Origin: Bacillota bacterium
GTDB taxonomy: Bacteria > Bacillota > Clostridia > Christensenellales > DTU072
Assembly: GCA_044426075.1 (NCBI GenBank)
Contig: JAWXUT010000003.1
Span: 1 to 33,002, forward strand
DNA length: 33,002 bases
Direction of reading: 5' to 3'
The notes under the pieces are model-generated. The model had not been told where the DNA came from. It saw only the letters and a list, made by a program, of their open reading frames with translations, and made no database searches. A program made the translations under genes and the position numbers. This document shows positions 3-31,355 of the stretch, piece after piece; within the stretch, counting starts at the first letter, position 1, and every line of letters begins with the position of its first letter.

Positions 3-3000
3 GGTTGTAATGGTTAAATATTTGGAATATTGCCCCCAATTATCGGATTGTCTGAAGGTGTCGATTTTTGACATACTTACATAAATACATAGGTTTCCGC
101 CACCCACAAAAACAATAGGTTGCCCCTCACAAACGGTGTCAGACGACGTTAAATATAGCGTTAAGTTTCCGCTACCCACGCTGAATGCGTTTTCACCCAC
201 GGTGCCCAATCTGCTAAATGTAATAGATGAAAGGTTATCTGTGCCATAAAAAGCATATTTGCCCACATCTATCACTTGCTTCACCTCAACTGTTGTTAGG
301 CTTTTAGCGCAATAAAATGCGTATTCGCCCACCGTAATAAGCGTTACATTTGAAGTTATAATTTCTTTTATAGTAGAATTATAGAATGCATATGAACCAA
401 TTTTTTCGATTCCACTTTTAATAGTATAAGTTGTGTATATTGAAGCAACGGGATATGCAAATAAAGAGCTGTCGCTAGCATCATAAACCACGCCATAATT
501 GTCAGTTGAATATGTGCCACTTGTGCCATAAATATAATATGCAGTTATGTTTTGATTGTTGTAAATTGATGTGGATTCCATATATGTTATGCCCGTTAAA
601 TCTAGCCAAGTAAGCGCGCTCATATTTGCCAGTGCATAGCCGTCTAACTCGCGCAAATTGCTTATATAAACTGCGGTTATTATATCGCGCTCACCCTCAA
701 AAACTGCGTGGTCAAGATAAGTAACTGCCCTACCATTAAAGTACTCCGGAATAACTATTACGCCACCACCGCCATTATAATCAAACAAGCCGGTACTGCC
801 GTCTTCACGCACATAATATGTGTAATTGTTGCTATAGCTGAGCCCATTTTTAATCACTTGATACCACTCGCTGGCGCTGTCACGTTCGCTACTAATTACA
901 ATTAGCTGACCCACAACGTCAATTGTATATTCGCTATATTTGCCATATGAATAGAACAATGATGCTATTGCATTTATTGCTTCTGTATCTGTACAAGAAA
1001 TAGCTATTAGCTTTTTAATACCTTCTATCTCTACATATTCATCAACATATTTTGCATAATTTGCAGCCCCTACTTCACTAAGCATTGCTGTTATATCAGT
1101 CATATAACTAGAGTAACCTATAGTGTAGCCGATGTTATTCAATAGATAAATATTGTCATCAAAAACAGCACGTAAATCGACTTCGTCGCCCGCATAAGAT
1201 ACCACAACACCTATTTCAATAGCGCAGTTTGGCATACTAAACACTTCAGATATGGATACCGTTTCTCCAGTTTCTGCACTTATATAATATAAATCATTTA
1301 ACACATAGCCGTCTTCTAATTCAAGCACAACCTCAACACTAGCAGTGCCGTATGCAGTACTTGCAACAGATATTGTGCAGTTATCGTTTTCTATAACAGT
1401 AATCTTATAACTGCTAGTATAAGATATTGGTGTCCAGAAAGCTGCATCTACTGCTAAATCACTCTTGCCCATTGTGTATGTGTATGTTGACCTTGTTGTG
1501 GCAGCGTTTATAACTATTTTTCCGTTAATTGTAAGTGTTGTTAAATAGTATCCGCTAGTAGGTATTATTGTAAATGTTACCTCTTCACCATAACTTGCTA
1601 CCTCTTTATCGGCAACAACCACACCATTTGAACTTTCTGCAATAGTTATGCCATACACCACTTCAACGGTGTACATTATAGTGACGTTTTCACTTGGCAT
1701 AACAAAGCCATAAGTTATATCCAATCCGTTTGCGGTTATTGATGTAATGCGATAACCCTCGTCTGCAACGGCTGTTATACTTACATACTCACCGCTATCA
1801 GCACTGGTTGCGCTCAATATTATTGCAGCACCCGCTGTGTTTTGCGTGCTTATTGTATACGAACCACTGCTTGCGTCTTCTGCAAATTCAGCTGTTAAAT
1901 ACATATCGCTTGTAACTAATATATAGCTTCCAAGTTCAACTTGAGCACCGTTTGCTTGCAATGAACCTTCGATATAAGTGTATCCGTCATAAGCCGTTAT
2001 CCACACGTATATGTAACTATTTTCTTCTGCTTTAGTGTAATCTACATCAATATATCCGCCGCCATATGTTTCCACCTCAATGTCATAAACGCGCACAAAT
2101 ATTGCTGTAATTTCACAATCATAATTAGGCATTACAAAACTATTTGCAGCTGAAACAACACTGCCGTTTATCATAAATCCTTTAAAAATATAATCGGATT
2201 CGGTGGTTATACCTAGTTCAACTACACTGCCCGCCGCCACACTTTCATACAATGTGGTTACGCTTCCGCCCTCTGCATCTATTATATCAATATTATAAAT
2301 ATCGCTGTCATCTATTGCTACAAATCTAACTTCAATTGTAGTTTCTTCTGTATATGCAATTATTAAATCACTCACTTCGAATCCGTTTACAACCACGCTT
2401 TCAAGCATATATCCGCTATCCGCCACAATATCAAGCACTATGTACTCACCAAGCGCGTAATAGTTTTTGCTTGGCGTTACGCTGCCCTCGCCGTCAACTT
2501 CAATGTTAACCGAACAAACCTCTTCTTCATAATCAATTTTACTAAATTCGCACATTATGTATAAATCATTGCTTCCCATAGTAAATGTATTATTTGCAAT
2601 TGTAACTGTTGCATCTAATGTGCTGATACTGCTTAGATAATATCCCACTTCGGGCTGAACAGAAATTGTTATTTCGTCCCCCATATTCGCGGTTGTTGTA
2701 GAACAAATTATGGTGCCATTATCGCTATCCATTACTATAATTTCGCATTCTGAGAGTTCAACCTCCGCAGTAACCACAACTGCTTCCGCTGGCATCAAAA
2801 ATGAAGTGCCCTCAATATATACGCCGTTTACTGCAATACTGCCCTCAACCAACTGATATCCCGCATCTGCATAAGTATAAACGCGGATTGTCTCATTAAA
2901 ACTCGCTTCACTCACGCTTACTTTAATATATCCGTTATCGCACTCACCCGCAGTAAGTGTATGTGAACAAAGCATACTATCTATCCAACCCGCATATAAT

Positions 3001-3284
3001 GTGAGGTCTTTGCTGGCAGAAAACAAATATGCGCGCACTGTTTGCGTACATTCAGCATCATAATACCACCCCAAAAAATCATAACCCGCTTTGGTTGGGT
3101 CTGTAGGCAGAGTCAAGCCGTCGCCCACATTAAGTACTGTTGAGGCTACTTCGCTTCCGCCATTGCTGTCAAAAGTTATCGTACACGTTTCACTTGTTGA
3201 ACTTGTATCCGTCCCGCAAGCAAGCAGTGTGCAACTTAAACACAACACTAATATTAAAATTAAAATAAAAGATAGCTTTCTCAT
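3..3284 (-). CDS. Large surface lipoprotein: InlB B-repeat / divergent bacterial repeat domains followed by BspA-type leucine-rich repeats; partial, stop codon just outside the window
   Basis: Manual translation from ATG 3284: MRKLSFILILILVLCLSCTLLAC (lipobox LLAC), then TITFDSNGGS...PTDPTKAGYDFLGWY (InlB B-repeat). The same frame at the left edge reads CIYVSMSKIDTFRQSDNWGQYSKYLTITT, typical of a BspA LRR C-terminal cap. No stop-terminated minus-strand ORF is listed here, consistent with an open frame to the edge. Confidence 0.85.
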   Translation of the reverse strand, partial: MRKLSFILILILVLCLSCTLLACGTDTSSTSETCTITFDSNGGSEVASTVLNVGDGLTLPTDPTKAGYDFLGWYYDAECTQTVRAYLFSASKDLTLYAGWIDSMLCSHTLTAGECDNGYIKVSVSEASFNETIRVYTYADAGYQLVEGSIAVNGVYIEGTSFLMPAEAVVVTAEVELSECEIIVMDSDNGTIICSTTTANMGDEITISVQPEVGYYLSSISTLDATVTIANNTFTMGSNDLYIMCEFSKIDYEEEVCSVNIEVDGEGSVTPSKNYYALGEYIVLDIVADSGYMLESVVVNGFEVSDLIIAYTEETTIEVRFVAIDDSDIYNIDIIDAEGGSVTTLYESVAAGSVVELGITTESDYIFKGFMINGSVVSAANSFVMPNYDCEITAIFVRVYDIEVETYGGGYIDVDYTKAEENSYIYVWITAYDGYTYIEGSLQANGAQVELGSYILVTSDMYLTAEFAEDASSGSYTISTQNTAGAAIILSATSADSGEYVSITAVADEGYRITSITANGLDITYGFVMPSENVTIMYTVEVVYGITIAESSNGVVVADKEVASYGEEVTFTIIPTSGYYLTTLTINGKIVINAATTRSTYTYTMGKSDLAVDAAFWTPISYTSSYKITVIENDNCTISVASTAYGTASVEVVLELEDGYVLNDLYYISAETGETVSISEVFSMPNCAIEIGVVVSYAGDEVDLRAVFDDNIYLLNNIGYTIGYSSYMTDITAMLSEVGAANYAKYVDEYVEIEGIKKLIAISCTDTEAINAIASLFYSYGKYSEYTIDVVGQLIVISSERDSASEWYQVIKNGLSYSNNYTYYVREDGSTGLFDYNGGGGVIVIPEYFNGRAVTYLDHAVFEGERDIITAVYISNLRELDGYALANMSALTWLDLTGITYMESTSIYNNQNITAYYIYGTSGTYSTDNYGVVYDASDSSLFAYPVASIYTTYTIKSGIEKIGSYAFYNSTIKEIITSNVTLITVGEYAFYCAKSLTTVEVKQVIDVGKYAFYGTDNLSSITFSRLGTVGENAFSVGSGNLTLYLTSSDTVCEGQPIVFVGGGNLCIYVSMSKIDTFRQSDNWGQYSKYLTITT

Positions 3285-3499: not shown

Positions 3500-5053
3500 T
3501 TAAGCAAGGTCTTGCATCGCACACAAATTTTTGTACACCCTTGCGGTTGCCACGGCATCGAACACCGCCCTATGCGCATTGGTAAGTTCAACATCAAACA
3601 TCTTGCACAAGTTGCCGAGTTTATAACTTTTGATTCGCACCTTTTTACGCGCAAGATCTAGCGTGTCTACAACTTTATTGTTGAATTCATACTTGCATTT
3701 TTTGCCCGCAATAACTAAAAATCCCATATCGAAACTGGCATTATGCGCCACAAGCACAGCATCTTTGCTGAATTTATAGAAATCTGCTATTACATCACCA
3801 AGTTCGGGGGCGTCAACCACATCTTCGTCATATATATGATTAACAGCACTTGCGCCCGCGGGAATTGGTTTGTTGGGTTTTACTAGCGAACCAAACTGCT
3901 CCACTATAACTCCGTCTACAATTTTACAAGCTCCAATTTCAATTATCACTTCTGTAGTTGGACTGAAACCCGTTGTTTCTAAATCAAACACAACATGCAC
4001 GCCCGATAATGCTTCAATTTTTTCTTCCACATCAAAAAGCCCCGCTTGCTCAGTATTTTCACAGTGCTCCGGCCTTACCGCAATGTAGTCATCATATACA
4101 AAATTGCATTCTTCATCTGACTCTTCTTCTACTAAGTTTTGATTTATAGTGCATAGCGCTGCCCTAAACATAGTCATACAATTTTTGCCGTTATATGCAT
4201 CCATTCTAATAGGGCCTTCAGCAACTAGCTCAACACCGTCTGCAACTTTGTCGGCAAACTTTGTAACTTGGCTATCAAATTTAGGGAAAAATTTTACATC
4301 TATCACACCATTTGTATCATTTAATTTGAATACGAAAAATGTTTTACCCGTGTTTTTAGACTCTATTCTGCGCAATCCAAGCACCTTGCCACACACCGTT
4401 TCTGATGCGCTTTCGGAATTAATTACATCTGTAATGTAGCGTGGAATTTTTGTTATTGAACCCACCAACATACCGTCGTCAACTAGGCTAATATCCATTG
4501 TGTGCGACTTTTGTGCAATTTCTTTTCGCGTGGGTTTTTTCTTTGTGAGCACGGCAATTTCATCATCTTCAGTTTCGTGTAGAAAGGTTACAGTTGCAGC
4601 TTCCATTACCTTTTTTTCTAAATATTCTTCCAATTTCTCTTGAATATTGTTGGTTTGCATAAAAGATAACAAGTATGCTGGCAGCTTCATTGTGAGCGCT
4701 ATTGTGTCATACTCAATTTCAGTTTCAACCGTTCTGTCGCTTATTTTTGGGAACACTAGTGGGAGTTCTTTTAAGAAAAATTCCATAACACATCTTGTAA
4801 TATATGTGTTGTCGCTAACGGTTTTTCTGTATGTAATTTTCACACTGAAGGTTTTTGGCACTAGTTCGCCAATAAACGCGTCAACTTTGTTTCTGAACTC
4901 CTCATTAAGCATACTATCATAGTCGGAGGCTTTTACTAACAATATTATCTCTAATCTGTTTTGCACAACTATTGCTTCCGACAACTTAAAAATGCGCTCC
5001 CGTTCAGAAAGCTTTTTATTAAATTCAAACATAAATAAACTTATGCCGTCCAT
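3500..5053 (-). CDS. PolC-derived 3'-5' exonuclease (PolC-like N-terminal domain + OB fold + DEDDh exonuclease; no PHP or polymerase domain)
   Basis: ExoI VFDLETTG, ExoII AHNASFD, ExoIII HRAVFDA; OB-like segment VCGKVLGLRRIESKNTGKTFFVFKLNDTNGVIDVKFF; usual polC position after ispG; only 517 aa. Confidence 0.8.
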   Translation of the reverse strand: MDGISLFMFEFNKKLSERERIFKLSEAIVVQNRLEIILLVKASDYDSMLNEEFRNKVDAFIGELVPKTFSVKITYRKTVSDNTYITRCVMEFFLKELPLVFPKISDRTVETEIEYDTIALTMKLPAYLLSFMQTNNIQEKLEEYLEKKVMEAATVTFLHETEDDEIAVLTKKKPTRKEIAQKSHTMDISLVDDGMLVGSITKIPRYITDVINSESASETVCGKVLGLRRIESKNTGKTFFVFKLNDTNGVIDVKFFPKFDSQVTKFADKVADGVELVAEGPIRMDAYNGKNCMTMFRAALCTINQNLVEEESDEECNFVYDDYIAVRPEHCENTEQAGLFDVEEKIEALSGVHVVFDLETTGFSPTTEVIIEIGACKIVDGVIVEQFGSLVKPNKPIPAGASAVNHIYDEDVVDAPELGDVIADFYKFSKDAVLVAHNASFDMGFLVIAGKKCKYEFNNKVVDTLDLARKKVRIKSYKLGNLCKMFDVELTNAHRAVFDAVATARVYKNLCAMQDLA

Positions 5054-6069
5054 TAGTATTCCTCCACCATTTTCATAAGTTCAGAAATTATATCTGCGTT
5101 ATTTACAGTTTTAACTGCGTTGCCGTCTTTGAACAATATTGATTTCCCTTTGCCACCGCAAACCCCAATATGCGCGCCCTTAGACTCGCCAATTCCATTT
5201 ACCGCACACCCCATAACTGCCACTTTAAGTTGCTTTTTTAGTCCCGCTGTAGCTAACTCCACCTTTGAAGCATATTCTTCCACATTTATAACCGTTCGTG
5301 CACAAGTTGGACAAGCTATAACCTCAACAAAATCTTTGTCTTGCCCCACTGCACGCAAAATTTGTCTGCCTAAAACAACCTCTTGATAGGGGTCGCCAGA
5401 CAATGAAATGCGCATTGTGTCCCCAATTCCTTCAGCAAGCAACGCGCCCATTGCAACCGCCGATTTAACCGCACCATATTTTATTGTGCCCGACTCCGTG
5501 AGCCCGATATGTAAAGGATACTGTGAAATTTTATCAAGTGCCCTATACGCCTCAATTGTCTTACTTACATCGCTAGACTTAACCGCAAGTACAATGTCGG
5601 TGAAGCCCTCATCTTCAAGTAGCTTTGCGCTGTCTAAACACTTTAGCGCAAGCTCTTCTGCAGTCACTTCGCGCTTTTTAAAAGAACCTTGATTTACACC
5701 AACCCTTATTGGCACGCTACACGCTTTTGCCATTCTTGCAACTTCTCTTATACCCTCTTTTTGTAGGTTGCTAGGGTTAAGCCTTATCTTACTTGCACCC
5801 GCTTCAATTGCGGCAAGCGCTATCTTATAGTCATAATGAATATCTGCAACTATAGGTACATTAGTTTCTGCGATAATAAGCTTTAGGGCTTCTGCACTAG
5901 CAAAATCGGGTACCGAAACACGCACAATATCAGCACCAAGCGATGCGGATTTGTTTATCTGTTCAACAGTCATTTTGATATCAGTTGTAAGAGTATTTGT
6001 CATAGTTTGCACACTAATCGGTGCACCACCACCTATACAAATATCTTTTACATAAACACACTTTTTCAT
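5053..6069 (-). CDS. ispG: HMBPP synthase (flavodoxin/ferredoxin-dependent)
   Basis: IGGGAPISVQTMTNT, PIVADIHYDY, PLHIGLTE, GIGDTMRISL, CPTCAR and AVMGCAVNG. Start moved to ATG 6069 (MKKCVYV) to avoid overlap with rseP. Confidence 0.96.
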   Translation of the reverse strand: MKKCVYVKDICIGGGAPISVQTMTNTLTTDIKMTVEQINKSASLGADIVRVSVPDFASAEALKLIIAETNVPIVADIHYDYKIALAAIEAGASKIRLNPSNLQKEGIREVARMAKACSVPIRVGVNQGSFKKREVTAEELALKCLDSAKLLEDEGFTDIVLAVKSSDVSKTIEAYRALDKISQYPLHIGLTESGTIKYGAVKSAVAMGALLAEGIGDTMRISLSGDPYQEVVLGRQILRAVGQDKDFVEVIACPTCARTVINVEEYASKVELATAGLKKQLKVAVMGCAVNGIGESKGAHIGVCGGKGKSILFKDGNAVKTVNNADIISELMKMVEEY

Positions 6070-6082
6070 TAGTAACTCCTTG

Positions 6083-7192
6083 TCACAGCAAGAACAGTTG
6101 GAATATATCTGCCAATATTGCAAAGGCAAATATAGCCAAGAATCCTACAGTATGAATAATGCCCTCAACCTTTTTGGGGACTGGTTTTTTAAAAATCATT
6201 TCAATCAAGCAGAACACCATGCGTGAGCCGTCTAGCGCGGGCAAAGGCAATAGGTTCATAACAGCAAGGTTAGCCGAAACCAAACACACAACATAAGCAA
6301 GCATTGCAGAACCGCCCCTTGACGCATCTGCTATAGCTGTAATTGTGGTAATTGGGCCACCCGCACTTTCCATACCAAGTTGGCCGGTTATTAGCATTCC
6401 GAGTATGGCAATTATCTTGTACACCAAGAAGAACATATATGAAAAACTTCTGCCAAGTGCGGTAAAAAAGCTAAGTTGTGTTGTTACAACAGTTGATGCA
6501 AAACCATAACCATAATATGTTGCAATGCTTCCGTCATCGTTATATTCATAAACCCACACACCGTCATCGTCATAAGCACCAAGCTGATATTCCGATTTTG
6601 TGAGTGTAAGTGTTACTTTTTCGCCGTCACGAAGCACTTGTACAACCGCGGTATCGTTATCTTCTGCAAAGATTCCCGTTGCGTCGCTTGCTTCTAATAT
6701 ATTAATTTGTTTGCCGTCTACCTTTAAAATTGCGTCTCCCGCTTGCAGCAACTCTACATTTGCGCTGTCGCTATATGTTGAAGCCACGCTTAGTGTTATT
6801 TGGCCGCTAAATGTAAATACAAATGTTATTATTATCCACGCCGATATTAAGTTGAAAAATGCACCAGAAAATAGTACAATTAACCTCTTCCATGCGGGTT
6901 GATTATTGAATGCTGTAGGGCTTTTTGAATTGTCATCTTCGTCTTCAAACTGGCAGTATCCGCCAAGTGGAATTGTTCTTATTGCAAAAATTTCATCGGA
7001 TTTCTTGCTTGTTCTCTTATAAATTGCGGGTCCGAAACCCACTGAAAATTCCAATATTTTGAATCCTAGCAGTTTCCCCGCTAAGTAATGACCACCTTCG
7101 TGTATTACAATCATAAACATAAGCGCAAGTAGTGCCAGCAGAATATAACCCGCTGTTTCCATAACGCTTGCAAATGTTGCCATTAGTACCAT
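6083..7192 (-). CDS. rseP: RIP/site-2 zinc metalloprotease, M50 family
   Basis: HEGGH zinc motif, FSVGFGP, PLGGY, PDZ-like segment, NLLPLPALDG; synteny with dxr and ispG. Confidence 0.93.
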   Translation of the reverse strand: MVLMATFASVMETAGYILLALLALMFMIVIHEGGHYLAGKLLGFKILEFSVGFGPAIYKRTSKKSDEIFAIRTIPLGGYCQFEDEDDNSKSPTAFNNQPAWKRLIVLFSGAFFNLISAWIIITFVFTFSGQITLSVASTYSDSANVELLQAGDAILKVDGKQINILEASDATGIFAEDNDTAVVQVLRDGEKVTLTLTKSEYQLGAYDDDGVWVYEYNDDGSIATYYGYGFASTVVTTQLSFFTALGRSFSYMFFLVYKIIAILGMLITGQLGMESAGGPITTITAIADASRGGSAMLAYVVCLVSANLAVMNLLPLPALDGSRMVFCLIEMIFKKPVPKKVEGIIHTVGFLAIFAFAILADIFQLFLL

Positions 7193-11154: not shown

Positions 11155-11286
11155 AGTAAAAAGCCAGAGATTGCGTGCACAACGAAGCGAACGCCCAATT
11201 TTAAAAATCCTAATGTATCAAGATATACCTGAATTTTTAAAATTGGGCGCTCGTAAAGTTGTGTGCGTGATATATGGCTTTTTACT
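11155..11286. repeat. Long imperfect palindrome (about 132 bp) overlapping the giant gene's stop codon
   Basis: Nested arms AGTAAAAAGCCA/TGGCTTTTTACT, TGCGTGCACAAC/GTTGTGTGCGTG, CGCCCAATTTTAAAAAT/ATTTTTAAAATTGGGCG, TGTATC/GATATA. Confidence 0.9.
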
Positions 11287-14200
11287 TCTTAGAGAAGTGG
11301 AAAGAAACCAACCCCACAAGCAATGCTCCAACTACTGCTAAAATTATCCAGAATAAGATTGAACTTGTGGCATCTGCTAGTGCTGTTTGAGCGGTGTCGT
11401 ATACGAATACGAATGGTGACAAGCTGTCTGTTTCAAATACTGCATAGCCGTCAATTATTTCGTAATTTACAAAGCTAGAAACGCCGTCGTGTACGTGAAT
11501 AATTTCAAATCCCAAATCCGCTAGTTCTTCTGGAACAAGGATTTTTACAGTTATTGTGCCGTCTGGTTGCACTTCAAAGCCAGATTCTGAAAGAGAAATA
11601 TCAAAAGCTTTAACTGCGGTGTAACCACTTAATAGCACCAATTCTTCAATTGTTTCAATTTCTGTAATAACAGAAACTACAAGGCTGAAGTTAGGATCAA
11701 TACCGTTTTCGGTTGTAATAACAACTTCGTCTTGCAGAAGATTGTCATCCACATTTTCTTCTACATTAAGTTGAGCACTTTTTAGTACAAAGGTAAATGT
11801 GATATCAACTGTTGAGCCGTCTGTCCAAACGCAGCCGTCAATCAATGAAACGGTTACTGTGTATGTGCCCGCTACTGATTGAACGTTGCCAGAAATTGTC
11901 ATTTTTGTACTATCGTATCCAACTGGTAAATATGTAACGTTTTTGCCAACCGTAGTAAATACAGTGGTGTTTGCTGTTGGAATAGCAGCTGTTCTTGCAG
12001 TTAGCGTGCTGCTTAAGGTGTTAAGAAGCGCAATTTCTTCCACAAGAAGCGCGGCAACGTTTGCATCTAAGCTGTTGTAAGAAGCAATGGCGTTTGCGAT
12101 ATCGTCTTTATCGTCATACACAGCTGTTTCAGTTGTTAAACTCAAAGCGTAAGCGTGTGTTGTTGCAAAACTTTCTGCAACAGAAGCCGCAGTTACTAGT
12201 GTGTATAATGTAGCAGTTTGTACAAATGCGTCGAGTTCTGCGTATGTTGCGCAAGCATTTAAGGTTGTGATATCGGCTGCCATTGCTGATTGCAAAGCGG
12301 TAAAGCTAGCTACTGTGTAATCGGCTGCAACAATATCATCAGCAATCGCGTTGATTTCTGCAACCACGTCTGCAATATTATATTGAAGATCTGTTGAGTA
12401 AGCTGCTGCTTTAGCTGCAAGAGCGTCAACATCATATGACTCAATTGATGTTAGAGATGTCATAGCAGTTACTTTTGTTTTTGCGGTTGCAAACAATGCT
12501 GAAATTGCTGTCCATTCGGTTTCTCTGTAATCGCTTTCTGTGTAGTTAGCAGAAATAGTATTGATTTGCGCAAGCACATCGTCTCTTGCTACCTTTACAT
12601 CAGAATCTTCACTTGTATAAGTTGCGGTGTAAGTAACGCTTGCTGTAGCTATAACAACGTCTGTATCCCAACCAGTAAATACATATTTAATATCACCAAC
12701 TTCTTTTCCAACAACTTCTGGAACAATTGGCATTTCATTTAATAATGTGTAAACTACAAGGTCGCCAGTGTAGCTGAATACATCTGCATCCACTATAAAT
12801 GTAATTGTATATATTGTTTCATAAATCTCAAATGAAACAGTTGCGGTAACTTCTTCACTATTGTATTCAAATGTAGCTACAACATAGTATGTGCCCGCTT
12901 TAGCATTTGCAATATCTGTGACCTCAACTTCGCAAGTTTCATCAGAATAGTAAGCATAAGTTGCAGAAATCACTTCACCATTTACATAAGTTGTAGGAGC
13001 ATTTGCTGTGCTTCCATAATACCAATTTGTAATAATAACTGTTGGTTCTGCGGTTGAAGGAGCAAGAATTTCAAATGAAAGGCTAGTTGAAGTAATTTCA
13101 TCGTAGTTATCAGTTTCATCGATAACAGCTTTAGCGTAGTAAGTACCAATTTTTGTTGGCATACCAGCAGTATAAGTGCCGTTTTCTTCTGTGCTGAATA
13201 CATAATATACATCATCTTCGCCAAACATAGCTTCAACTGTAAACTCGCTAGGCTCTTCACCATAATACCAGCTATTGCCACCTATTTGGAACATAATGCT
13301 ATTTGTAGCCTTAGTAACTGTCAATGTGCCAGTTTCAAAAGTGATATCATAATTGCTATCTGTTGCACTTGGTGCTATTGTATATTCACCAACATTGCCG
13401 GCATAAACAACTTCGTTAGAATCAACAACTGTGTAAGTGATTGCAAGTGCGTCTTCGCCAACCAATGTTACAATTGTGCTTTTGTATGTTGGTGTATTTC
13501 CATATGAAATAGATATATCATCTGCAGTTACTGTAATTTCTTTAGCTGAAACCGTAAGTTTTCCATATACAATAGAAACATTGTAGTTTGAGCTTACAGT
13601 AACATTAGGTACAATATTATATGAACCCACAGCGCTTCCTACTTCATAAGAACAAGTGTATTCAACAGTAATCAATTTTTCATCAGCCTCAAGAAGTGAA
13701 CCACTTGTAATTGTGTATCCATAGCTTGCTGTTGGGGCTGCGTCGCCATATGTGATTGTAGCGCTTGCTGCAGTTACAGTAATTCTTTTTGTGCTAACCG
13801 TCAATTTGGCATCAGTAACAGAAACAATATAGTTGTCGCCCGCTGTTGCTGTTGCGGTAATAGTATATGAACCCACGTTGCCTTCGTAATCAGAAACAGC
13901 GTATTCAATTGTAATCTCATCACTATTAAACAATCCAGTAACCTTGCTTGTGTATGAAGGTTCACTATCACCATAAGTAATGGTTTCAGAGTTGATAATT
14001 ACTGAAACAGCCGCTTGTTGCACCTCAATTTTTACAATTTTATAAACATCTGAAGTGTAGTTTGATGAATTATTAACGCTAATCTTAACATAGTATGTGC
14101 CCGCATCTGTTGGAGCTGTGCTTGTATAGTCACCATTCTCACTTGTGCTATATGTATACACAATTGTTCCAAAATAATCATTAGCTACAGCGCCACTAAT

Positions 14201-17200
14201 TGTCTGAGCCGCACCATTGTAAGTGTATTCAGTTGCTACCCCAGTAGTTGAAATTGTGGTTGTAGCTTGATTAATTACAAGAGTAATAGTAAGAGCTTCA
14301 GAAGAATTGCCATCCTCCAATATCCACTCATAGTTAGCAGTATCTTCTAACGTAACCGAACCAGTATAAGTTCCAGCATTTAACCCAGTAGCTTGTAAAA
14401 CCGTGTACAATCCATCGCTATCTGCACTAACATCAGTAGTAACTTGAGAACCATCGTATGTTTCCGTAAATGAAACATCTGGTGCAGTTACTGTTGCTTT
14501 TGAAATTACAAATAGAACTGCTGAGCTTGTTACTAAATAATAGTCATCAGTTGATGCAATACTTGCTTTTACATAATATGTACCTGCATTTGTTGGTACT
14601 GTACCTGTATAGTCACCATTTTCGCTATCGCTATATGTGTACGTAATTGTATCTGTACCGAACTTTGCTGTTGCTGATGGTGCGTTAACTGTGTCGCCAT
14701 AAGTCCAATCTGTAATTGCAAGGTCTTCTGTGAACTCATTGTCAGCTTGTATTACTTTAAATGTAACTTCTGTTGTTGTTATGCTGTAGTTATCATTAGC
14801 CGTATAACTAATTTTAACTGTGTATGTGTCTACATTACTACCAACTTCATAATCACATGATACACTAATTTCAAAGTCACTTAAATCAGCGGCCAGTATA
14901 TTACTTGTTGTGTACTCATATGTTGGCGCTTCACTATAATAGGCAATTTCTTCTGCAGATACAGTAGATGTAATTGTTGCAGAACGCTGTCCGATTGTAA
15001 ATGATATTGCACTGCTCGTTGCTGATGCATAGTTTTTATATGCTGAATCGTCTGCTACAGAAACGGCTTTTACATAATATGTGCCAGCGTTTGTTGGAAC
15101 AGTAGTTGACCAATCTGCATCATCTAAATCAGATGTATAATAATATGTTATTGTATCTGTACCACCAAAAGTAGCTGTTGCTGATGGTGCGTTAACTGTG
15201 TCGCCATAAGTCCAATCTGTAATTGCAAGGTCTTCTGTGAACTCATTGTCAGCTTGTATTACTTTAAATGTAACTTCTGTTGTTGTTATGCTGTAGTTAT
15301 CATTAGCCGTATAACTAATTTTAACTGTGTATGTGTCTACATTACTACCAACTTCATAATCACATGATACACTAATTTCAAAGTCACTTAAATCAGCGGC
15401 CAGTATATTACTTGTTGTGTACTCATATGTTGGCGCTTCACTATAATAGGCAATTTCTTCTGCAGATACAGTAGATGTAATTGTTGCAGAACGCTGTCCG
15501 ATTGTAAATGATATTGCACTGCTCGTTGCTGATGCATAGTTTTTATATGCTGAATCGTCTGCTACAGAAACGGCTTTTACATAATATGTGCCAGCGTCTG
15601 TTGGAACATCTCCTGAATATGTGCCATCTTCCATATCACTATATGTATAGGTAATTGTACCACCAAAAGTTGCTGTTGCTGTTGGTGCGTTAGCTGTGTC
15701 GCCATAAGTCCAATCTGTAATTGCTAAATCGGATATAGTATTTGTAGCTTGTGTAATTGTAAGGGTTGCTGTCATACTGCTAGGAGCCTTATAGTTAGCG
15801 TCACTTGTTTCAAATGAAGCTGTAATTGTGCCAGAGCCTACATTTGTTACGCTTCCGCTATATGAAACCGTAATATCTGAATTTAGCGCTACGCCATCAG
15901 CAAAAGTCAAAGAACTTAGCGATTGTTCAGAACCATTGTAAACTGAACTACCATTTTCAAATGAAACACCAGTCATATCATAATCAGCCTTAGCTATTTT
16001 AAAGTCAAATGTTTTTACTGCACCTTCTGCCCACTCGTAGTTAGTTGAGTCGTTTAGGGTTAGGGTGTAGGTGTAAGTGCCAGCGTTTGTTTGGGTTAAA
16101 GAGTATTCTTCACCATAATTAATTGTGTAGAATTCACTTGTAGCTAGATTATAAGTTTGTGCTGTGCCGTCGTAAGTGAACTCTGTGCTATCTGCATCGG
16201 GGCTAGATACTTTTGCTTTTAAAACAGCAAGTGTAGCGTTTTGTGATGCAATCAAAGTAAAGTTGTTGTTTGTATTATCATATATAGAATAAGTTACATA
16301 ATAAGTTTTATCTGCAATCAAAGCAGAAGACTTTACCTCTTCAGTTCTATCTTCATTTGAATAGAAAACAGTTTCAATATACCACGAATTTGAATAATTC
16401 ACTGCAGCGCTTACTTCATCTTCAATTTGAAGTGCCGTTACACTATATGCGCCATTGTAAACCGCAGTATAGCTAAGGGTTGGCAACGCAATATCATCCT
16501 TTGTATAACTCGCACTGCTATTTAGTATTTCAATAAGAGCCACATTGCCAGTGTAAGTTTCCGCATAGTAAGTTGCATCCCCAAAACGAGACCAACTGCC
16601 ACTTTCTTCTGTTATTGCAGAGAATGTAGAACTATTTGAATCAGCGATAGTAAATGAATCACCCACGCTATATGAACCAACAGTTTCGTCATTTAAAGTT
16701 ACTGAAACAGTTTTTCCACTTAATGTTGTAACATCTGATGGTGTGCTTGATAATCCATAATCACTGCTATTACCTTTTTGATAAGTATACTCAGCGTCAC
16801 CGTAAGAATAACCAGATTCAGCAATATCAAGTGCATTTGTAAGCACTAATTTGTTTGAGAAAACAGTGTTTGTGGTTGCACCAGAAGCTGAAACCGATGA
16901 AGCAGAATTATATCCATAACCAGAAGTAATTAAACCAATTACTGGATATGCGTTAGATGCACTTACATTAAAGAACGTATTAGTTACATCTAAATACAAA
17001 TCGCTTACTTTATTTTGTGCAGTAGATGTAGATGTGTCAGCCGCAATAACTGCGCCATAGTTACATGTTATTGTCGTAGGAGCTATTGAAGATAATGCAA
17101 GACTAGCTAAAGTAACAGCACAATTTGATATAGTTGTACCTGTAGCATTACCGCAAAATCCACCTACAGCAATAGTTAACGTGCCATTAGCACTTTGAGA

Positions 17201-20200
17201 ACCATACAAAACACCTTGAATATTTACAGTTGAATTTGATATACTTCCGCCAGATGAACTACCTGCTATTCCACCAATCAGTCTAACCTGATTGCCACTA
17301 GCGCGCAAGCTAGTTATTGTAACACCAGAAGCTACAGATACATTAATATTACTTATTGTACCTTCCAAATAACCTGTAAGCAATCCAAATGTTATTGTAT
17401 TTGTGCCATTTGAATATTTGTATGTAGCCGTAGATGTATAAATCAATGTTAAGTTTTTAATTGTACCATAACATTCTTGAACAAAGAAACTTGTGTTGTT
17501 GCTTGTGCTACTTGTGTAAGTCACAGTGCCAGAAAATGTTATTGTATATCCATTTCCATCAAGAGTGTATCCACTAGCAACTTTTCTAACAGCTGTTGTG
17601 CTAAAATAATTAGTGTCAGTAGATAAATCTACAACTAAATCACATGTTAGATAAGCATTGCCTGTGCCAGAATTTAGATATTCATAAAGTGATTCTGCAT
17701 CAGAAATTGCAGTGCCGCTTGCATTATAATAGCCATCTAGCACTGTGCCAGACTCAACTGCGCCATAAACATCAATTAAATCTGCATCGCCAGATAGGTC
17801 AAGCGCTTCTAGGTCTGTGGTTTTTTGCGTATCATCTTCGCCTGAATCTGCAATAGCAATTGTATAAGTGGTTACATTGCTAATTAGCCTATCGCCATTA
17901 TATATAGATATGTATACATTATATGTGCCTGACCTTGTAGGAGTATTGCTTGACTCATAAACAGCGCTAGCGCCACTATAGTATACAGAAACTGTAGCAT
18001 TTGCCTCAATTATAGCAATAAGATCTGTATCACTAGTAACACTGCTAATATCTTGTGAAGCATTTGCGCCATAGCTATATGTTATATCTGCACTATCACT
18101 ATTGTCATCTGCACTATCACTATCGTCAGTTATCACAGCCAATTTTTGCATTGTTGCTGTATAAGACAAATTAGTTGTGCTAGTACTACTATTATCATTG
18201 TAATAAATTACATCTGCAAGTGAATATGTACCAGTGTATCCACCAGCAACATAAGTGCTGCTAAACCTTGCCCAATCACTATCGTTTTGTGTTAGAGTTG
18301 CTAATATATTGCTATAATCAATGTTGGTTGCGGATAGATAAATTGTAAATGTAGCAAACAAGCCTTCATCTTCATTGTATCCCGCAACAAAGTCAGTTGC
18401 ATTGTCTCCAGTCATTGCTAACGCTGGTGTGTTGTAGTCTGATAAGTCATAAATTGAACTAGTTGTAGTAACATCATCATCTAAATCAACACCATAATCT
18501 AAACCGTCATCTTTTGCTTGCAATAAATACAAAGCTAAAACTGTTGGTGTCGCTTCACCTGAATCATATGCACCAGAAGCATATAAACCTATTTTGTTTG
18601 TATCAGTTGAAACACAACTATAAAAGTCATTTGAAACATCCAATATCATATTACTACTTTCGCCTGGACTAGCTGATGTAGCTTTACCAAAAGCCGCACC
18701 GATATAAGATGTAGTATCTGCATAACTAATTAATGAATTAGATTGCAAAATTACTGCAGAATTGCTAGCAGTAGTAGCATATTCGCCACTTATTCCACCA
18801 ATATCAGCATTAACTGCGTTTTCTGATGTTGCAAGAGAACCCTCTATATTCACCGTACAATTTGTTATAGTTCCAACACTCGCGTCTGCATTAGATCCTA
18901 CAATTCCACCTATAGCATAATGGCCAGTAGTATTGTTAGTGCTAGCTAATTCAATAGTAACTTTATCTGACACATAAACATAAACATTATCAATTGTGCC
19001 ACTCAAATAAGCAGTTACACCACCCCATTGTATGTTTTGAGAACTTGATGCTCCCATATTTGTTATGGTATAGGTTACAGGTGAAGTTGAGGTTGTATCA
19101 TATATAAAACTTAAATTTTGCACAGTTCCAGAAACATTGTGTATTAAAAAGCTCGTTCTAGTTAGAGTTGCTGATATAGTATCTGATATACTAACATCTG
19201 AACTTGCATAGAAGATTATAGAATAACCATTGCCTTCAAGTGTGCAACCGCTTGCAACATTTCTTGCTGTTCCATTATAACTAACATCAGCTAAATCTAT
19301 ATAAATATTGCATGATAAATATGCGCTACCTGTTCCGCCTTCCAAATATGATATCAACTCACTTGCTTTTGAAATTGCAGTCCAACTGCTATCAATTTCA
19401 TGATTTTCACCAACTGTGCCAGACTCAACTGCACCATAAACATCTATTAAACTTGCGCTACTTGATAAATCGAGGGAAGTTAAATCTGTTGTTTTTTGTG
19501 CTGGGTCTTCAATAATCTCTAAAGTGTAAGTTTGGGATACAAAAGTAATGTTATTGTATGCTATTTCACAATAAACTGAATATGTACCCGCTGTTGTAGG
19601 CACTGCAGATTGTGATGCATAATTTGTTCCCGAATATTGCACATTTAATGTGCAATATGTATTTAATCTTGCTACAATATAAGAATTATTAATAATATCG
19701 CTTATTTTAAATTCAGCGGATAGTGTATCATATACAGTTTTGTCATAGTCTGTATCACTTGGTGTAACCACTGCCGTATTTTCTGTAATCTCATAAGCAA
19801 TAGTTTCACTGCTGTTCAATATAATGTCTGCAATGCTAAATGTGCCAGTATAACTCTCAAAAATATTGTCTCCGTTAAATCGACACCACGCGTTCTCATT
19901 AGTTTGCGTTACTGCAAAAAGAATGTTTGTATCACTAATTGTAAATGAAGAAAACAAACTATCTGATACACTAGTAACACTACCTGTTCCACTATCCACG
20001 CTTATACTCGTTGGTGCGGAATAATTATATAAATTAATTATGCTTGGTGTTGATAATGTATTGTAATAGTTTGAAGAAGTAGAGTCAGCTGTAGAAGTAG
20101 AAGTATAAGTTTTGGTTGGTAATGATGCAGGAGCCTCGCTCAAATAAATCAAATCATCACTATAGTTTGCATCCTCACCATCATAGGTTGTTATTATGCC

Positions 20201-22195
20201 AACGGTATAAGTAGTATCCGTATTGTTAATAGCATAAAAAGTTGAATCTAAATCCAAAATTATATCGGACACATTTACTGTTCCCGTTGAACTTGCAAAA
20301 ACAGCAGCTAGATGTGCATACATACCATTGCAATTATCATTAGCCGCCCTTTGCCTCGTATACAATGCTTTATTTCCTAATGTAACAGAACAATTGCTAA
20401 TTGTTGTTCCCGTACTTGCCACATAGCCACAAACTCCACCAACATATGTTGGGCACACAATGTTACTGCCAGTTGCATTTGCCTCTGCATAAATTTGACC
20501 TTGAATATCTATTGTGCAGTTTTTTATTGTTGTAGCAGTTGCATATCCTGTTATCCCTCCGATACATCTCGTTACAACTATTGTATAAGTAGATCTTTGA
20601 CTGCTCAATGTTCCTGATACAGCAACACTAACATTTTGTATTATTGCATTAGAAGCACCACCTACAACACCACCCATATAAACTACATTATTTTTACCAT
20701 CAGTGCAACAGCCATAGGTATATCCACCGCTATAAATTATTGATAAATTCTCAATAGTTCCTTCGCAATAATCACAGAAAAAACTGTAATATGAAGTTTC
20801 ATTATCTGGTGTCCATGTCACTGCTTCAGTTCCAGTAAATGTAATAGTATAACCATTGCCATCAAAGGTTTGGCCTGATGCTATTGATTTATAATCATCA
20901 TATTTCTCCTCTATACTATCTGAAGATAAATCAATAGTAAGGTCACAAGTTAAATAAGCATTAGTTGTATCAGTCGTGCCACTAGTAAGCCAATCATATA
21001 AATCGATTGCTGATGAAATTGGGGTTCCACTCACCTCATTGTTGTACATAACCGTACCAGACTCAACTGCACCATAAACATCTATTAAATCAACATCATC
21101 ACTTGACAAATCAAGGGAAGATAATTCAGTGGTTTTTTGATTTTCATCAATAACCAAATCAGTGTCTGTATCAGTATTTGCATTTGGCACATATAAACCA
21201 TAGTGCGTTTCAAATGAATCCATATATCTTCCACCAAGAATTATATGGCCGGCTTCCAAAAAGTGCAATCCATCATCTTTATCCTTACTTGTATAAGTTG
21301 AGCCCTTAAGCTCATCTGAACTGATAAAATATGTATTATCATCATTTTCAACTACAGTTTCAATATCACTCATAACGTTGGCATATCCATTAGCATAAGT
21401 TACTGAATAAGTAGCATTAATTTCAAAATATTCTTGTGAAACTTGACCAATAAAAACTGGTAAGGTGTTTGAGCTGTTCCAAGTGCCACCATTTGCTGTA
21501 ACTGTACTTCTCACACCATCAATTAATGCTGTTAATGCAGTGCAATATGTGTCTGAATAACTTGATGTTGCTACATTACAATCGTTTTTCATATCATATT
21601 CGCCTTGATGCCAAAGGAAGCCAACAACTCTGTTATCACCGCTAACATTATCACCTAATGCATATGTAATTTGCGTAATTAATGATTCATATAAAGAACC
21701 ACCCTCTGTATCCCAATAATTATTTTTGTAAAAAAAGCCCGTTCCGCCTTCTGCCACTTTAACTACTAGCACGCTTCTGTTGCTAGCCAAGTAGTTTTCT
21801 GCATATTCTTCAACAAAAGTTTCACCAAAAGAATAATCGTAATTGCCATTTGTTTTAGTTCTGCTATATTCGCCAACAGTATATATGCCATTAGTAGTTT
21901 CATATTCGCCATCAGAAGTGCCCGATACTACTGCATAAACTTTGTTATATGGTGTTAAATATGTATCCTCAGATGCAGGGGAATAATAACCCAGTGCGTT
22001 AGATTGACCAGCTATAATTATAATATCATAACCCTCATCTACAACGGTATCGCCATAAACGCTAGTTGCCGCCTCTGCGGTGTCTACAACTGCATTATTT
22101 CCGCTTATAGCAGTCACAGTTATTAATGACACCAGTATTGCAAGCAATATTAGTATAACTACAAATGTACGCAAATTCCCTTTAGCTAGTCGCAT
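11282..22195 (-). CDS. Giant (3637 aa) cell-surface protein: signal peptide, SASA/SGNH O-acetylesterase, three ~550-aa GLUG-like/beta-helix modules, MBG/Ig-like stalk, helical region, C-terminal TM anchor
   Basis: IIIAGQSNA, VAEGGT, GFLWHQGE and DGLHF esterase blocks; repeated GGIxG motifs; repeated WTYGD..PTxAGTYYVKA and TITYGDxxP units; C-terminus ILFWIILAVVGALLVGLVSFHFSKK; RBS AGAGAGG. Confidence 0.88.
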   Translation of the reverse strand: MRLAKGNLRTFVVILILLAILVSLITVTAISGNNAVVDTAEAATSVYGDTVVDEGYDIIIIAGQSNALGYYSPASEDTYLTPYNKVYAVVSGTSDGEYETTNGIYTVGEYSRTKTNGNYDYSFGETFVEEYAENYLASNRSVLVVKVAEGGTGFFYKNNYWDTEGGSLYESLITQITYALGDNVSGDNRVVGFLWHQGEYDMKNDCNVATSSYSDTYCTALTALIDGVRSTVTANGGTWNSSNTLPVFIGQVSQEYFEINATYSVTYANGYANVMSDIETVVENDDNTYFISSDELKGSTYTSKDKDDGLHFLEAGHIILGGRYMDSFETHYGLYVPNANTDTDTDLVIDENQKTTELSSLDLSSDDVDLIDVYGAVESGTVMYNNEVSGTPISSAIDLYDWLTSGTTDTTNAYLTCDLTIDLSSDSIEEKYDDYKSIASGQTFDGNGYTITFTGTEAVTWTPDNETSYYSFFCDYCEGTIENLSIIYSGGYTYGCCTDGKNNVVYMGGVVGGASNAIIQNVSVAVSGTLSSQRSTYTIVVTRCIGGITGYATATTIKNCTIDIQGQIYAEANATGSNIVCPTYVGGVCGYVASTGTTISNCSVTLGNKALYTRQRAANDNCNGMYAHLAAVFASSTGTVNVSDIILDLDSTFYAINNTDTTYTVGIITTYDGEDANYSDDLIYLSEAPASLPTKTYTSTSTADSTSSNYYNTLSTPSIINLYNYSAPTSISVDSGTGSVTSVSDSLFSSFTISDTNILFAVTQTNENAWCRFNGDNIFESYTGTFSIADIILNSSETIAYEITENTAVVTPSDTDYDKTVYDTLSAEFKISDIINNSYIVARLNTYCTLNVQYSGTNYASQSAVPTTAGTYSVYCEIAYNNITFVSQTYTLEIIEDPAQKTTDLTSLDLSSSASLIDVYGAVESGTVGENHEIDSSWTAISKASELISYLEGGTGSAYLSCNIYIDLADVSYNGTARNVASGCTLEGNGYSIIFYASSDVSISDTISATLTRTSFLIHNVSGTVQNLSFIYDTTSTSPVTYTITNMGASSSQNIQWGGVTAYLSGTIDNVYVYVSDKVTIELASTNNTTGHYAIGGIVGSNADASVGTITNCTVNIEGSLATSENAVNADIGGISGEYATTASNSAVILQSNSLISYADTTSYIGAAFGKATSASPGESSNMILDVSNDFYSCVSTDTNKIGLYASGAYDSGEATPTVLALYLLQAKDDGLDYGVDLDDDVTTTSSIYDLSDYNTPALAMTGDNATDFVAGYNEDEGLFATFTIYLSATNIDYSNILATLTQNDSDWARFSSTYVAGGYTGTYSLADVIYYNDNSSTSTTNLSYTATMQKLAVITDDSDSADDNSDSADITYSYGANASQDISSVTSDTDLIAIIEANATVSVYYSGASAVYESSNTPTRSGTYNVYISIYNGDRLISNVTTYTIAIADSGEDDTQKTTDLEALDLSGDADLIDVYGAVESGTVLDGYYNASGTAISDAESLYEYLNSGTGNAYLTCDLVVDLSTDTNYFSTTAVRKVASGYTLDGNGYTITFSGTVTYTSSTSNNTSFFVQECYGTIKNLTLIYTSTATYKYSNGTNTITFGLLTGYLEGTISNINVSVASGVTITSLRASGNQVRLIGGIAGSSSGGSISNSTVNIQGVLYGSQSANGTLTIAVGGFCGNATGTTISNCAVTLASLALSSIAPTTITCNYGAVIAADTSTSTAQNKVSDLYLDVTNTFFNVSASNAYPVIGLITSGYGYNSASSVSASGATTNTVFSNKLVLTNALDIAESGYSYGDAEYTYQKGNSSDYGLSSTPSDVTTLSGKTVSVTLNDETVGSYSVGDSFTIADSNSSTFSAITEESGSWSRFGDATYYAETYTGNVALIEILNSSASYTKDDIALPTLSYTAVYNGAYSVTALQIEDEVSAAVNYSNSWYIETVFYSNEDRTEEVKSSALIADKTYYVTYSIYDNTNNNFTLIASQNATLAVLKAKVSSPDADSTEFTYDGTAQTYNLATSEFYTINYGEEYSLTQTNAGTYTYTLTLNDSTNYEWAEGAVKTFDFKIAKADYDMTGVSFENGSSVYNGSEQSLSSLTFADGVALNSDITVSYSGSVTNVGSGTITASFETSDANYKAPSSMTATLTITQATNTISDLAITDWTYGDTANAPTATATFGGTITYTYSDMEDGTYSGDVPTDAGTYYVKAVSVADDSAYKNYASATSSAISFTIGQRSATITSTVSAEEIAYYSEAPTYEYTTSNILAADLSDFEISVSCDYEVGSNVDTYTVKISYTANDNYSITTTEVTFKVIQADNEFTEDLAITDWTYGDTVNAPSATATFGGTDTITYYYTSDLDDADWSTTVPTNAGTYYVKAVSVADDSAYKNYASATSSAISFTIGQRSATITSTVSAEEIAYYSEAPTYEYTTSNILAADLSDFEISVSCDYEVGSNVDTYTVKISYTANDNYSITTTEVTFKVIQADNEFTEDLAITDWTYGDTVNAPSATAKFGTDTITYTYSDSENGDYTGTVPTNAGTYYVKASIASTDDYYLVTSSAVLFVISKATVTAPDVSFTETYDGSQVTTDVSADSDGLYTVLQATGLNAGTYTGSVTLEDTANYEWILEDGNSSEALTITLVINQATTTISTTGVATEYTYNGAAQTISGAVANDYFGTIVYTYSTSENGDYTSTAPTDAGTYYVKISVNNSSNYTSDVYKIVKIEVQQAAVSVIINSETITYGDSEPSYTSKVTGLFNSDEITIEYAVSDYEGNVGSYTITATATAGDNYIVSVTDAKLTVSTKRITVTAASATITYGDAAPTASYGYTITSGSLLEADEKLITVEYTCSYEVGSAVGSYNIVPNVTVSSNYNVSIVYGKLTVSAKEITVTADDISISYGNTPTYKSTIVTLVGEDALAITYTVVDSNEVVYAGNVGEYTIAPSATDSNYDITFETGTLTVTKATNSIMFQIGGNSWYYGEEPSEFTVEAMFGEDDVYYVFSTEENGTYTAGMPTKIGTYYAKAVIDETDNYDEITSTSLSFEILAPSTAEPTVIITNWYYGSTANAPTTYVNGEVISATYAYYSDETCEVEVTDIANAKAGTYYVVATFEYNSEEVTATVSFEIYETIYTITFIVDADVFSYTGDLVVYTLLNEMPIVPEVVGKEVGDIKYVFTGWDTDVVIATASVTYTATYTSEDSDVKVARDDVLAQINTISANYTESDYRETEWTAISALFATAKTKVTAMTSLTSIESYDVDALAAKAAAYSTDLQYNIADVVAEINAIADDIVAADYTVASFTALQSAMAADITTLNACATYAELDAFVQTATLYTLVTAASVAESFATTHAYALSLTTETAVYDDKDDIANAIASYNSLDANVAALLVEEIALLNTLSSTLTARTAAIPTANTTVFTTVGKNVTYLPVGYDSTKMTISGNVQSVAGTYTVTVSLIDGCVWTDGSTVDITFTFVLKSAQLNVEENVDDNLLQDEVVITTENGIDPNFSLVVSVITEIETIEELVLLSGYTAVKAFDISLSESGFEVQPDGTITVKILVPEELADLGFEIIHVHDGVSSFVNYEIIDGYAVFETDSLSPFVFVYDTAQTALADATSSILFWIILAVVGALLVGLVSFHFSKK
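14667..15597. repeat. Recent intragenic tandem duplication, 507-bp (169-aa) period
   Basis: 14667-15090 reads identical to 15174-15597 (424 bp); the translated segments are identical. Confidence 0.93.
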
Positions 22196-30839: not shown

Positions 30840-30868
30840 AGTATTCACCTCAAAAAATTTATAGGTTA

Positions 30869-30897
30869 ATTATACCACACAGTTTGCAATGTGTAAA
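30869..30897 (-). promoter_or_regulatory. Promoter of the 806-aa gene
   Basis: TTTACA-17 bp-TATAAT with extended TG. Confidence 0.7.
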
Positions 30898-30934
30898 TAT
30901 CGAACACCATTTTATTTGTATACTATGCAGTTTA

Positions 30935-30964
30935 TTGTCAACAATCAAATGTAAAGAATATAAT
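30935..30964 (+). promoter_or_regulatory. Promoter directly upstream of mazF
   Basis: TTGTCA-18 bp-TATAAT, then AGGAG RBS and ATG 30980. Confidence 0.6.
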
Positions 30965-30979
30965 GTAGAGGAGACGCAA

Positions 30980-31321: not shown

Positions 31322-31326
31322 TGACA

Positions 31327-31355
31327 TTGAAATCATATATATAATATGTTATAAT
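31327..31355 (+). promoter_or_regulatory. recX promoter, probably leaderless
   Basis: TTGAAA-17 bp-TATAAT with extended TG; ATG 6 nt downstream and no SD sequence. Confidence 0.7.

Follow-up and report, generated by a model that had tools for sequence, protein, structure and literature searches.

A shortened PolC with a conserved, candidate clamp-binding motif: a possible epsilon-like proofreader in a PolC-less clostridial lineage

PolC is generally regarded as the essential replicase by which Bacillota are marked, and is also an antibiotic target. Considered here is a gene which is a polC that has been shortened in place, found within a stretch of 33,002 nucleotides (‘the window’ in what follows), i.e., positions 1 to 33,002, forward strand, of contig JAWXUT010000003.1 of assembly GCA_044426075.1, a Bacillota bacterium (Clostridia; Christensenellales; DTU072). 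The encoded protein, for which we use the term ‘short PolC’, combines a PolC-type N-terminal domain, an OB fold, and an intact 3'-5' exonuclease. Between the latter two lies the pentapeptide QAGLF, which an earlier note, made from the sequence alone, had pointed to as a newly placed tether to the beta clamp (DnaN). That pentapeptide belongs to a conserved QxxLF site which may serve short PolC as a weak clamp tether, much as a comparable motif serves the epsilon proofreader of E. coli. The features of this locus are as follows, with lengths given in amino acids (aa) and with model confidence given as the predicted local distance difference test (pLDDT).

3500..5053, minus strand, including the stop: the whole gene, short-form PolC, of 517 aa plus stop (listing of open reading frames, or ORFs, and translation).
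4574..5053, minus strand, residues 1-160: PolC-type N-terminal domain of two alpha/beta subdomains (hhalign to PolCs of the same order).
4499..4573, minus strand, residues 161-185: connector from N-terminal domain to OB fold, of low confidence (pLDDT 51-54, and below 50 at 164-172).
4145..4498, minus strand, residues 186-303: OB fold (PF01336 at 219-285, E 3.4e-6; strands in the model; aligned to the PolC OB fold).
4094..4144, minus strand, residues 304-320: acidic spacer of varying length (C301 to P328 is 23-33 residues among 116 homologs).
4049..4093, minus strand, residues 321-335: relic of the PHP domain, YxxVxPxxY and then an alternating strand (conservation; MAFFT and hhalign to PolC).
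4034..4048, minus strand: candidate clamp-binding motif, Q336-A-G-L-F340 (family consensus E-Q-[ASG]-[GNSD]-L-F-D).
4001..4033, minus strand, residues 341-351: acidic spacer from motif to exonuclease, indel-rich and of varying length (F340 to D357 is 14-24 residues among the 116 homologs).
3503..4000, minus strand, residues 352-517: DEDDh 3'-5' exonuclease with intact active site (PF00929 at 354-507, E 3.1e-34).
5053-6129, minus strand: ispG, upstream (Pfam).
6083-7192, minus strand: rseP, further upstream (Pfam), preceded by dxr, cdsA, and uppS.

The ATG of the 517-aa gene and the stop of ispG share a single base (TAATG). Residues 332-344 of this ORF read ENTEQAGLFDVEE and contain QAGLF, with 4034-4048 encoding Q336 through F340 exactly. 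The earlier note thus had located the motif correctly, both in position and in its placement between OB fold and exonuclease. The full-length AlphaFold2 model of the protein has a mean pLDDT of 92.1 and a predicted template modelling score (pTM) of 0.62. Within that model the N-terminal domain reaches a pLDDT of 93-98 over residues 11-160, with 75 for residues 1-10, while the acidic spacer at 304-320 is at 66-76.

As a PolC the protein is incomplete. That is, the NCBIfam PolC model (NF001688) matches in two stretches but at 175.4 bits, below its cut-off of 873, and Pfam finds the OB fold and the exonuclease alone, i.e., no PHP domain and no polymerase core. As an exonuclease the protein instead passes TIGR00573, the epsilon-family exonuclease domain (125.7 bits versus a cut-off of 71.5), and falls below the cut-off of TIGR01406, dnaQ_proteo (105.3 bits versus 222.7). 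Upon comparison by hhalign of a profile of 116 homologs with a profile of nine full-length, same-order PolCs, the match has an E of 9.8e-76 and pairs query columns 35-535 with PolC 21-590. This match is collinear, spanning the N-terminal domain of PolC, its OB fold, and its exonuclease up to the end of the latter. The best matches to the protein in the PDB are a PolC exonuclease, 2p1j, and a PolC, 9qpc.

The order dxr-rseP-ispG-polC is seen in five of five PolC-bearing relatives checked, and there it is a full-length polC which directly follows ispG. Given this same dxr-rseP-ispG neighbourhood along with the collinear domains, the 517-aa gene is a polC ortholog by position which has been shortened in place. 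Retained from PolC are its N-terminal domain, OB fold, and exonuclease, and lost are the PHP barrel together with the whole of the polymerase, its C-terminal clamp motif included. Only 215 bp lie between the stop of the 517-aa gene and the next gene downstream, that of a large surface protein, and there is no downstream remnant of a polymerase. That downstream neighbour is an ORF of at least 1094 aa (window 3-3284, minus strand) which runs off the window and which displays Listeria-Bacteroides repeats, divergent InlB B-repeats, and BspA-type leucine-rich repeats.

The homologs just mentioned form an alignment (A1) of 116 sequences, 499-546 aa in length, which are 26-56% identical to the query and have a mean column identity of 33%. 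They consist of 115 of the best 120 matches plus the query itself, with four sequences (P0091, P0095, P0098, and P0103) excluded as short or differently built. Of the catalytic residues, D357, E359, D442, and H494 show no variation across this alignment, and D499 reaches at least 90% conservation.

How widely the short form occurs was considered first among relatives, i.e., 41 genomes of the family and order, that of the window (G000) included. PolC is found above cut-off in 11 of these, all 11 being from other families, and in not one of the 25 that belong to the same family as the window. Among the 30 genomes lacking PolC, G000 again included, 28 possess open frames of approximately 509-561 aa which match short PolC along its length, and the matches within this sample carry no in-frame stops. 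For the two PolC-less genomes in which the short form is missing, completeness is 85% and 76%. From all 11 genomes with PolC the short form is absent, so that in the sampled genomes the two are reciprocal in their distribution. A quick maximum-likelihood tree separates 25 short forms from 9 PolC N-terminal parts by one branch, with a value of 100 in the Shimodaira-Hasegawa-like approximate likelihood ratio test (SH-aLRT), and this tree, though unrooted, is compatible with a single origin of the short form.

In a wider, class-level sample of 151 genomes, full-length matches (ORFs of 509-552 aa) occur, besides in G000, in five genomes only, all of the same order. The remaining matches there are to the exonuclease part only, mostly within ORFs of 1300-1600 aa. 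As additional observations from this sample, 24 of the 151 genomes lack any match to short PolC, among them every sampled genome of families f20 and f31, and in a few others (G186, G159, G161, and G188) the matches are solely to ORFs 415-605 aa in length. The PolC-type exonuclease may also be lacking, or be differently shortened, in other clostridial lineages. Two of the closer relatives display extra copies. In G003 an exonuclease-only ORF of 203 aa (G003:C35:12926-13411), which is 44% identical to the short-PolC exonuclease and follows the short polC approximately 580 bp further downstream, seems to be a tandem paralog of the exonuclease, and in G013 an extra ORF of 441 aa bears the same exonuclease domain.

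Turning to polymerases, no full PolC was found by profile search of the window's assembly, which is 89% complete. A DnaE-type polymerase is present, broken across contig ends (C86, 4341-5413, and C55, to 7680). The best model for its N-terminal part is NF005298 (DNA polymerase III alpha, DnaE-type), at 476 bits versus 145 for PolC, and within its C-terminal part there is an internal motif, NQMDFF. DnaE1, that is, is the sole C-family polymerase found in this genome. A split PolC, with PHP domain and polymerase encoded elsewhere in the genome, was considered and rejected, as the only matches were to this same broken gene, which scores as DnaE. By eye, the N-terminal part of that gene follows an ORF of 316 aa, taken for whiA. 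Also by eye, the metal-binding residues of the DnaE PHP domain appear to be complete, and the lineage therefore may have two proofreaders.

The motif itself is conserved at those positions at which a clamp-binding motif should be. Q occupies position 336 in 102 of the 116 homologs, a hydrophobic residue occupies 339 in 115 (L being the residue in 81), and F occupies 340 in 105, with column entropies of 0.90, 1.51, and 0.57, respectively. The two positions in between vary, having entropies of 3.13 and 2.51, with A, S, G, and E most common at 337 and G, N, S, and D most common at 338. Flanking residues tend to be acidic, i.e., at 335 in 68 of the sequences, at 341 in 81 (D in 69), and at 343 in 63. 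The strict form, QxxLF, is seen in 70 of the 116, Q..[LIMF]F in 95, and the relaxed form, Qxx[LIMFV][FLYW], in 101. Elsewhere in the family the pattern is seen as four singletons only, leaving 336-340 as the sole recurrent site.

Short ORFs as read directly from the genomes of relatives present much the same picture. There the relaxed pattern is found in 22 of 27, and the motif begins 17-23 residues before VVFDLETTG in the 21 which were measured (G039 was left out of this spacing count, and one further locus, that of G012, was unreadable). Variants among these ORFs are ESNLF, ENLSMF, ESISMF, QMSAF, and SYNMNIY. The consensus for clamp-binding motifs is QL[S/D]LF or QxxLF, with positions 1, 4, and 5 the most important (PMC3919608, PMC12309361), and a hexapeptide form is tolerated within the class (PMC3919608, PMC12309361, PMC3642679). 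The motif of short PolC fits this class, as a pentapeptide of form Q-x-x-[L/M]-F which is kept at positions 1, 4, and 5 and which is variable at positions 2 and 3.

A match to so short a pattern could be due simply to chance, or could be a remnant within a decaying pseudogene, this gene after all being a truncated polC. By rough estimate from composition, a Q..[LIMF]F is expected in a 517-aa protein at 0.06-0.2 per protein, i.e., a single QxxLF may be expected in approximately one of ten proteins, so a single occurrence on its own is not rare. It is conservation across homologs which places the motif above chance, kept as it is among 116 sequences down to 26% identity. Similarly, decay is at odds with frames which remain open in nearly all of the PolC-less relatives and with catalytic residues which do not vary. 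Chance or decay is for these reasons effectively refuted as an explanation. In this the earlier note fared well: its proposed check, an alignment of homologs at QxxLF, bore out conservation of the motif, and its preference for function rather than decay is upheld by both the DEDDh residues and the lineage-wide presence of the short form.

In PolC the clamp-binding motif is found elsewhere. B. subtilis PolC carries QLSLF at its C-terminus (PMC12309361), and seven of the nine same-order PolCs possess Q..[LIMFV]F at the extreme C-terminus (e.g., ..NQLSLF), which is a part of the protein that is missing from the short form, just as the earlier note had indicated. Between residues 300 and 450, i.e., at the junction of OB fold, PHP domain, and exonuclease, none of the nine has the pattern, and hhalign finds no conserved Q, L, or F in these PolCs at columns equivalent to the motif. 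Because the C-terminal part is missing, and because PolC has no such motif at the junction, the motif is newly placed in the short protein, and lies where the N-terminal PHP segment of PolC formerly stood (MAFFT, hhalign), as had likewise been claimed. Derivation of the motif from an inherited PHP strand was considered and rejected: MAFFT sets it opposite the PolC strand G-x-E-G-Y-L, but hhalign gives no residue-level equivalence.

Something of the PHP domain nonetheless persists just upstream. Y323 is conserved in 105 of the 116 homologs, V326 in 85 (I in 22), P328 in 112, and a Y at 331 in 96, the window's own sequence having a C at position 331 instead. Both MAFFT and hhalign align this VxPExY element with the PolC PHP motif VVQAFPEAY, and it is because both do so that we describe the element as a ‘relic’ of the lost domain. 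This stretch of approximately 15 residues is all that is convincingly shared with the PHP domain of PolC.

Binding of the motif to DnaN was addressed by co-folding. No dnaN was found in the window's 89%-complete assembly (searches with PF02768 and TIGR00663), for which reason the DnaN of a relative from another genus (G005) was used instead. Residues 305-517 of short PolC (116-row alignment) thus were folded together with two copies of that DnaN (29-row alignment). The resulting interface scores, as ipSAE (interaction prediction score from aligned errors), were 0.39, 0.41, and 0.39, versus 0.00 for the best of three controls, and the verdict was one of weak support. At least 95% of contacts were common to the runs, and the partner had a pLDDT of 81. 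The mark employed is passed by 58 of 80 solved complexes and by 2 of 110 mismatched pairs, and scores of 0.60 or below are those of just 7 of the 80 solved complexes along with both of the mismatches that pass. As complexes of clamp with peptide and of clamp with epsilon have already been solved, the pass may reflect likeness to these.

Given the above, it seems somewhat probable that the conserved QxxLF is a weak, epsilon-like DnaN tether, belonging to a proofreader which is predicted to act in trans beside DnaE1. The sequence E-Q-x-x-L-F-D would then be a newly evolved clamp-binding motif, residing in a short surface loop between the PHP relic and the first strand of the exonuclease. DnaE1 would occupy one pocket of the DnaN dimer by way of its internal NQMDFF, and short PolC would occupy the second pocket by way of QAGLF. 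Such tethering would keep the exonuclease, and perhaps also the OB fold, beside the primer terminus, with mismatches removed in trans, as by epsilon with its QTSMAF. As position 2 is almost never L, this tether also should be weak and exchangeable, like that of epsilon.

The protein terminates with its exonuclease domain (Pfam end 507 of 517), i.e., it has no epsilon-like C-terminal tail, and therefore needs some other route to DnaE1. The motif from this perspective might be a docking peptide for a replisome partner other than DnaN, such as the PHP domain of DnaE1, the clamp-loader protein DnaX, or SSB. Clostridial DnaE1 does possess, on its PHP domain, a conserved putative epsilon-binding surface (PMC3919608). 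It is also beside PHP-domain debris that the motif arose. On the other hand, the pattern of conserved positions is that of the clamp consensus, no DnaE-, tau-, or SSB-binding peptide is known to have such form, and more obvious candidates for contact are the N-terminal domain and the OB fold, both of which are conserved. Docking to another partner strikes us as unlikely.

Various points weigh against the motif being a clamp tether. Fifteen of the 116 homologs depart from even the relaxed pattern, mostly by loss of the Q while L[FL]D is kept, and L is found at position 2 in only 4 of the 116, which predicts low affinity. The co-fold result is weak, was obtained with a stand-in DnaN, and comes with no reported interface by which QAGLF could be placed in the hydrophobic pocket between domains II and III of DnaN. 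Look-alikes of clamp motifs also exist within folded domains: CEQGELF is present inside the PHP domain of two of the nine PolCs, in the C-terminal half of that domain (residue 677 of L036 and residue 667 of L040, the PolCs of G029 and G026, respectively), and Taq Pol III has a buried, non-functional C-terminal motif (PMC3642679). The distance from P328 to Q336 furthermore is exactly 8 residues in 115 of the 116 sequences, and a motif so rigidly spaced might belong to some structural unit instead of being a linear motif that is free. Lastly, in the full-length model the pLDDT is 92 at 321-330, 82 at 331-340, and 89 at 341-350, as coil with a beta-bridge at 329-330. With confidence this high, the motif region may pack on the OB fold or N-terminal domain and thereby be occluded.

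These latter points may be gathered into an alternative reading, that of an intramolecular latch or structural remnant, in which L339 and F340 would sit in a hydrophobic groove of the protein's own OB fold or N-terminal domain and, together with the relic, would fix how the exonuclease is oriented relative to the OB fold, with likeness to a clamp motif being incidental. Consistent with such a latch are the fixed spacing of relic and motif, the MAFFT pairing with a PolC PHP strand, and the buried CEQGELF look-alike. Consistent also is what happens when residues 305-517 are folded alone, i.e., lacking the OB fold and N-terminal domain. The motif block (335-344) then falls to a pLDDT of 58, while the relic remains at 83-87 with its beta-bridge kept; residues 305-314 of the acidic spacer are at 52, and the motif segment is coil in both models. 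The fragment was folded with a shallower alignment, however, of 25 rows versus 116, and the drop in confidence may equally stem from that difference.

A drop in pLDDT at the motif fits with a surface loop, as modelled, rather than with part of the exonuclease core, and the confidence values suggest that it is the relic instead which is docked on the exonuclease. A conserved Q, hydrophilic and variable residues at positions 2 and 3, and acidic flanks, taken together, also are characteristic of a clamp motif and not of a buried anchor. PolC, for its part, does not conserve Q, L, or F at the equivalent columns, and the co-fold with DnaN scores above all of its controls, if weakly. A latch is therefore a serious but unlikely alternative.

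The clamp tether accordingly survives from the earlier note in part. Conservation, new placement, and function of the gene all stand. The linker, by contrast, had been described as otherwise variable, and this was not fully right, given the conserved element of Y323, V326, P328, and position 331 (Y in most homologs) at its constant distance from the motif. The motif segment is modelled with low confidence in the fragment and with high confidence in the full-length protein. The proposed co-folding with DnaN was above controls, and so lends some backing to binding, though weakly and with a relative's clamp.

More broadly, it is possible, and is suggested here tentatively, that within a subclade of this clostridial order PolC has given rise to a clamp-tethered trans proofreader for DnaE1, with a motif built from PHP debris and thus of convergent, epsilon-like origin, leaving these Bacillota to replicate with DnaE1 alone. 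What such a lineage keeps of PolC is only its N-terminal third. If QxxLF does bind DnaN, then this would show how a proofreader can re-attach to the replisome following loss of its polymerase, and would provide the epsilon solution, that is, a weak clamp tether beside an exonuclease, with a second instance that is independent of the first. The question of PolC plus DnaE1 versus DnaE1-only clostridial replisomes (from PMC3919608) then would become testable with a small protein. These gut-type Clostridia would in addition stand out as a group from which the drug target PolC is naturally absent.

Elsewhere in the window are several additional genes. A giant ORF of 3637 aa (11282-22195, minus strand) has an N-terminal SASA-type sialate acetylesterase domain, MBG (YGX) domains, and a GLUG motif, and probably is a glycan-acting protein of the cell surface. 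A MazF/PemK-type toxin gene (30884-31321, plus strand) overlaps the start of recX (31314-31979, plus strand), with no antitoxin ORF noted. An ORF of 809 aa (28419-30848, minus strand) matches no Pfam family at E <= 1e-5.

Among known systems, it is PolC itself (NF001688 / TIGR01405) from which short PolC descends. The two share homologous, collinear N-terminal domain, OB fold, and exonuclease, as well as the same locus, and PolC provides the best structural match, 9qpc_A. The short form differs in having no PHP barrel (relic aside), palm, fingers, thumb, HhH motif, or C-terminal QLSLF, and in that its clamp-type motif is internal. There are Clostridia in which DnaE1 occurs alone, and PolCs in which the exonuclease is missing (PMC3919608). 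No description of a PolC-derived protein of N-terminal domain, OB fold, and exonuclease without polymerase was found in literature searches or in passages of two broad surveys of bacterial C-family polymerases (PMC3919608, PMC12926913).

In terms of the motif, DnaE of B. subtilis is closest. Its QMGLF is just one position removed from QAGLF, is similarly a QxxLF without L at position 2, and was measured as a weak binder, though found after the HhH motif of a polymerase rather than beside an exonuclease (PMC12309361). The dissociation constant (KD) with the clamp is approximately 78 uM for this motif versus 3.8 uM for the QLSLF of PolC and 210 uM for the motif of epsilon (PMC12309361). Clamp interaction by DnaE is dispensable in B. 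subtilis (PMC12309361).

In terms of arrangement it is E. coli epsilon (DnaQ) which is most alike. Its QTSMAF, found directly after the exonuclease domain, binds the clamp and stimulates proofreading, a stimulation which is abolished by mutation of M185 and F187, and polymerase and exonuclease in E. coli occupy one clamp pocket each (PMC3642679). Short PolC, like epsilon, is a DEDDh proofreading exonuclease encoded apart from a DnaE1-type polymerase, has a motif of Qxx(L/M)(x)F type, presumably a weak one, immediately beside the catalytic domain, and is matched in fold by 2ido, 1j53, and 5fkv_D. The predicted placement of polymerase in one clamp pocket and exonuclease in the other also would be the same (PMC3642679, PMC12309361). 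Unlike epsilon, short PolC has its motif N-terminal rather than C-terminal of the exonuclease, as a pentapeptide rather than a hexapeptide; is without a C-terminal, alpha-binding tail; possesses some 300 extra N-terminal residues, i.e., the PolC N-terminal domain and OB fold; and has PolC, not DnaQ, as its ancestor.

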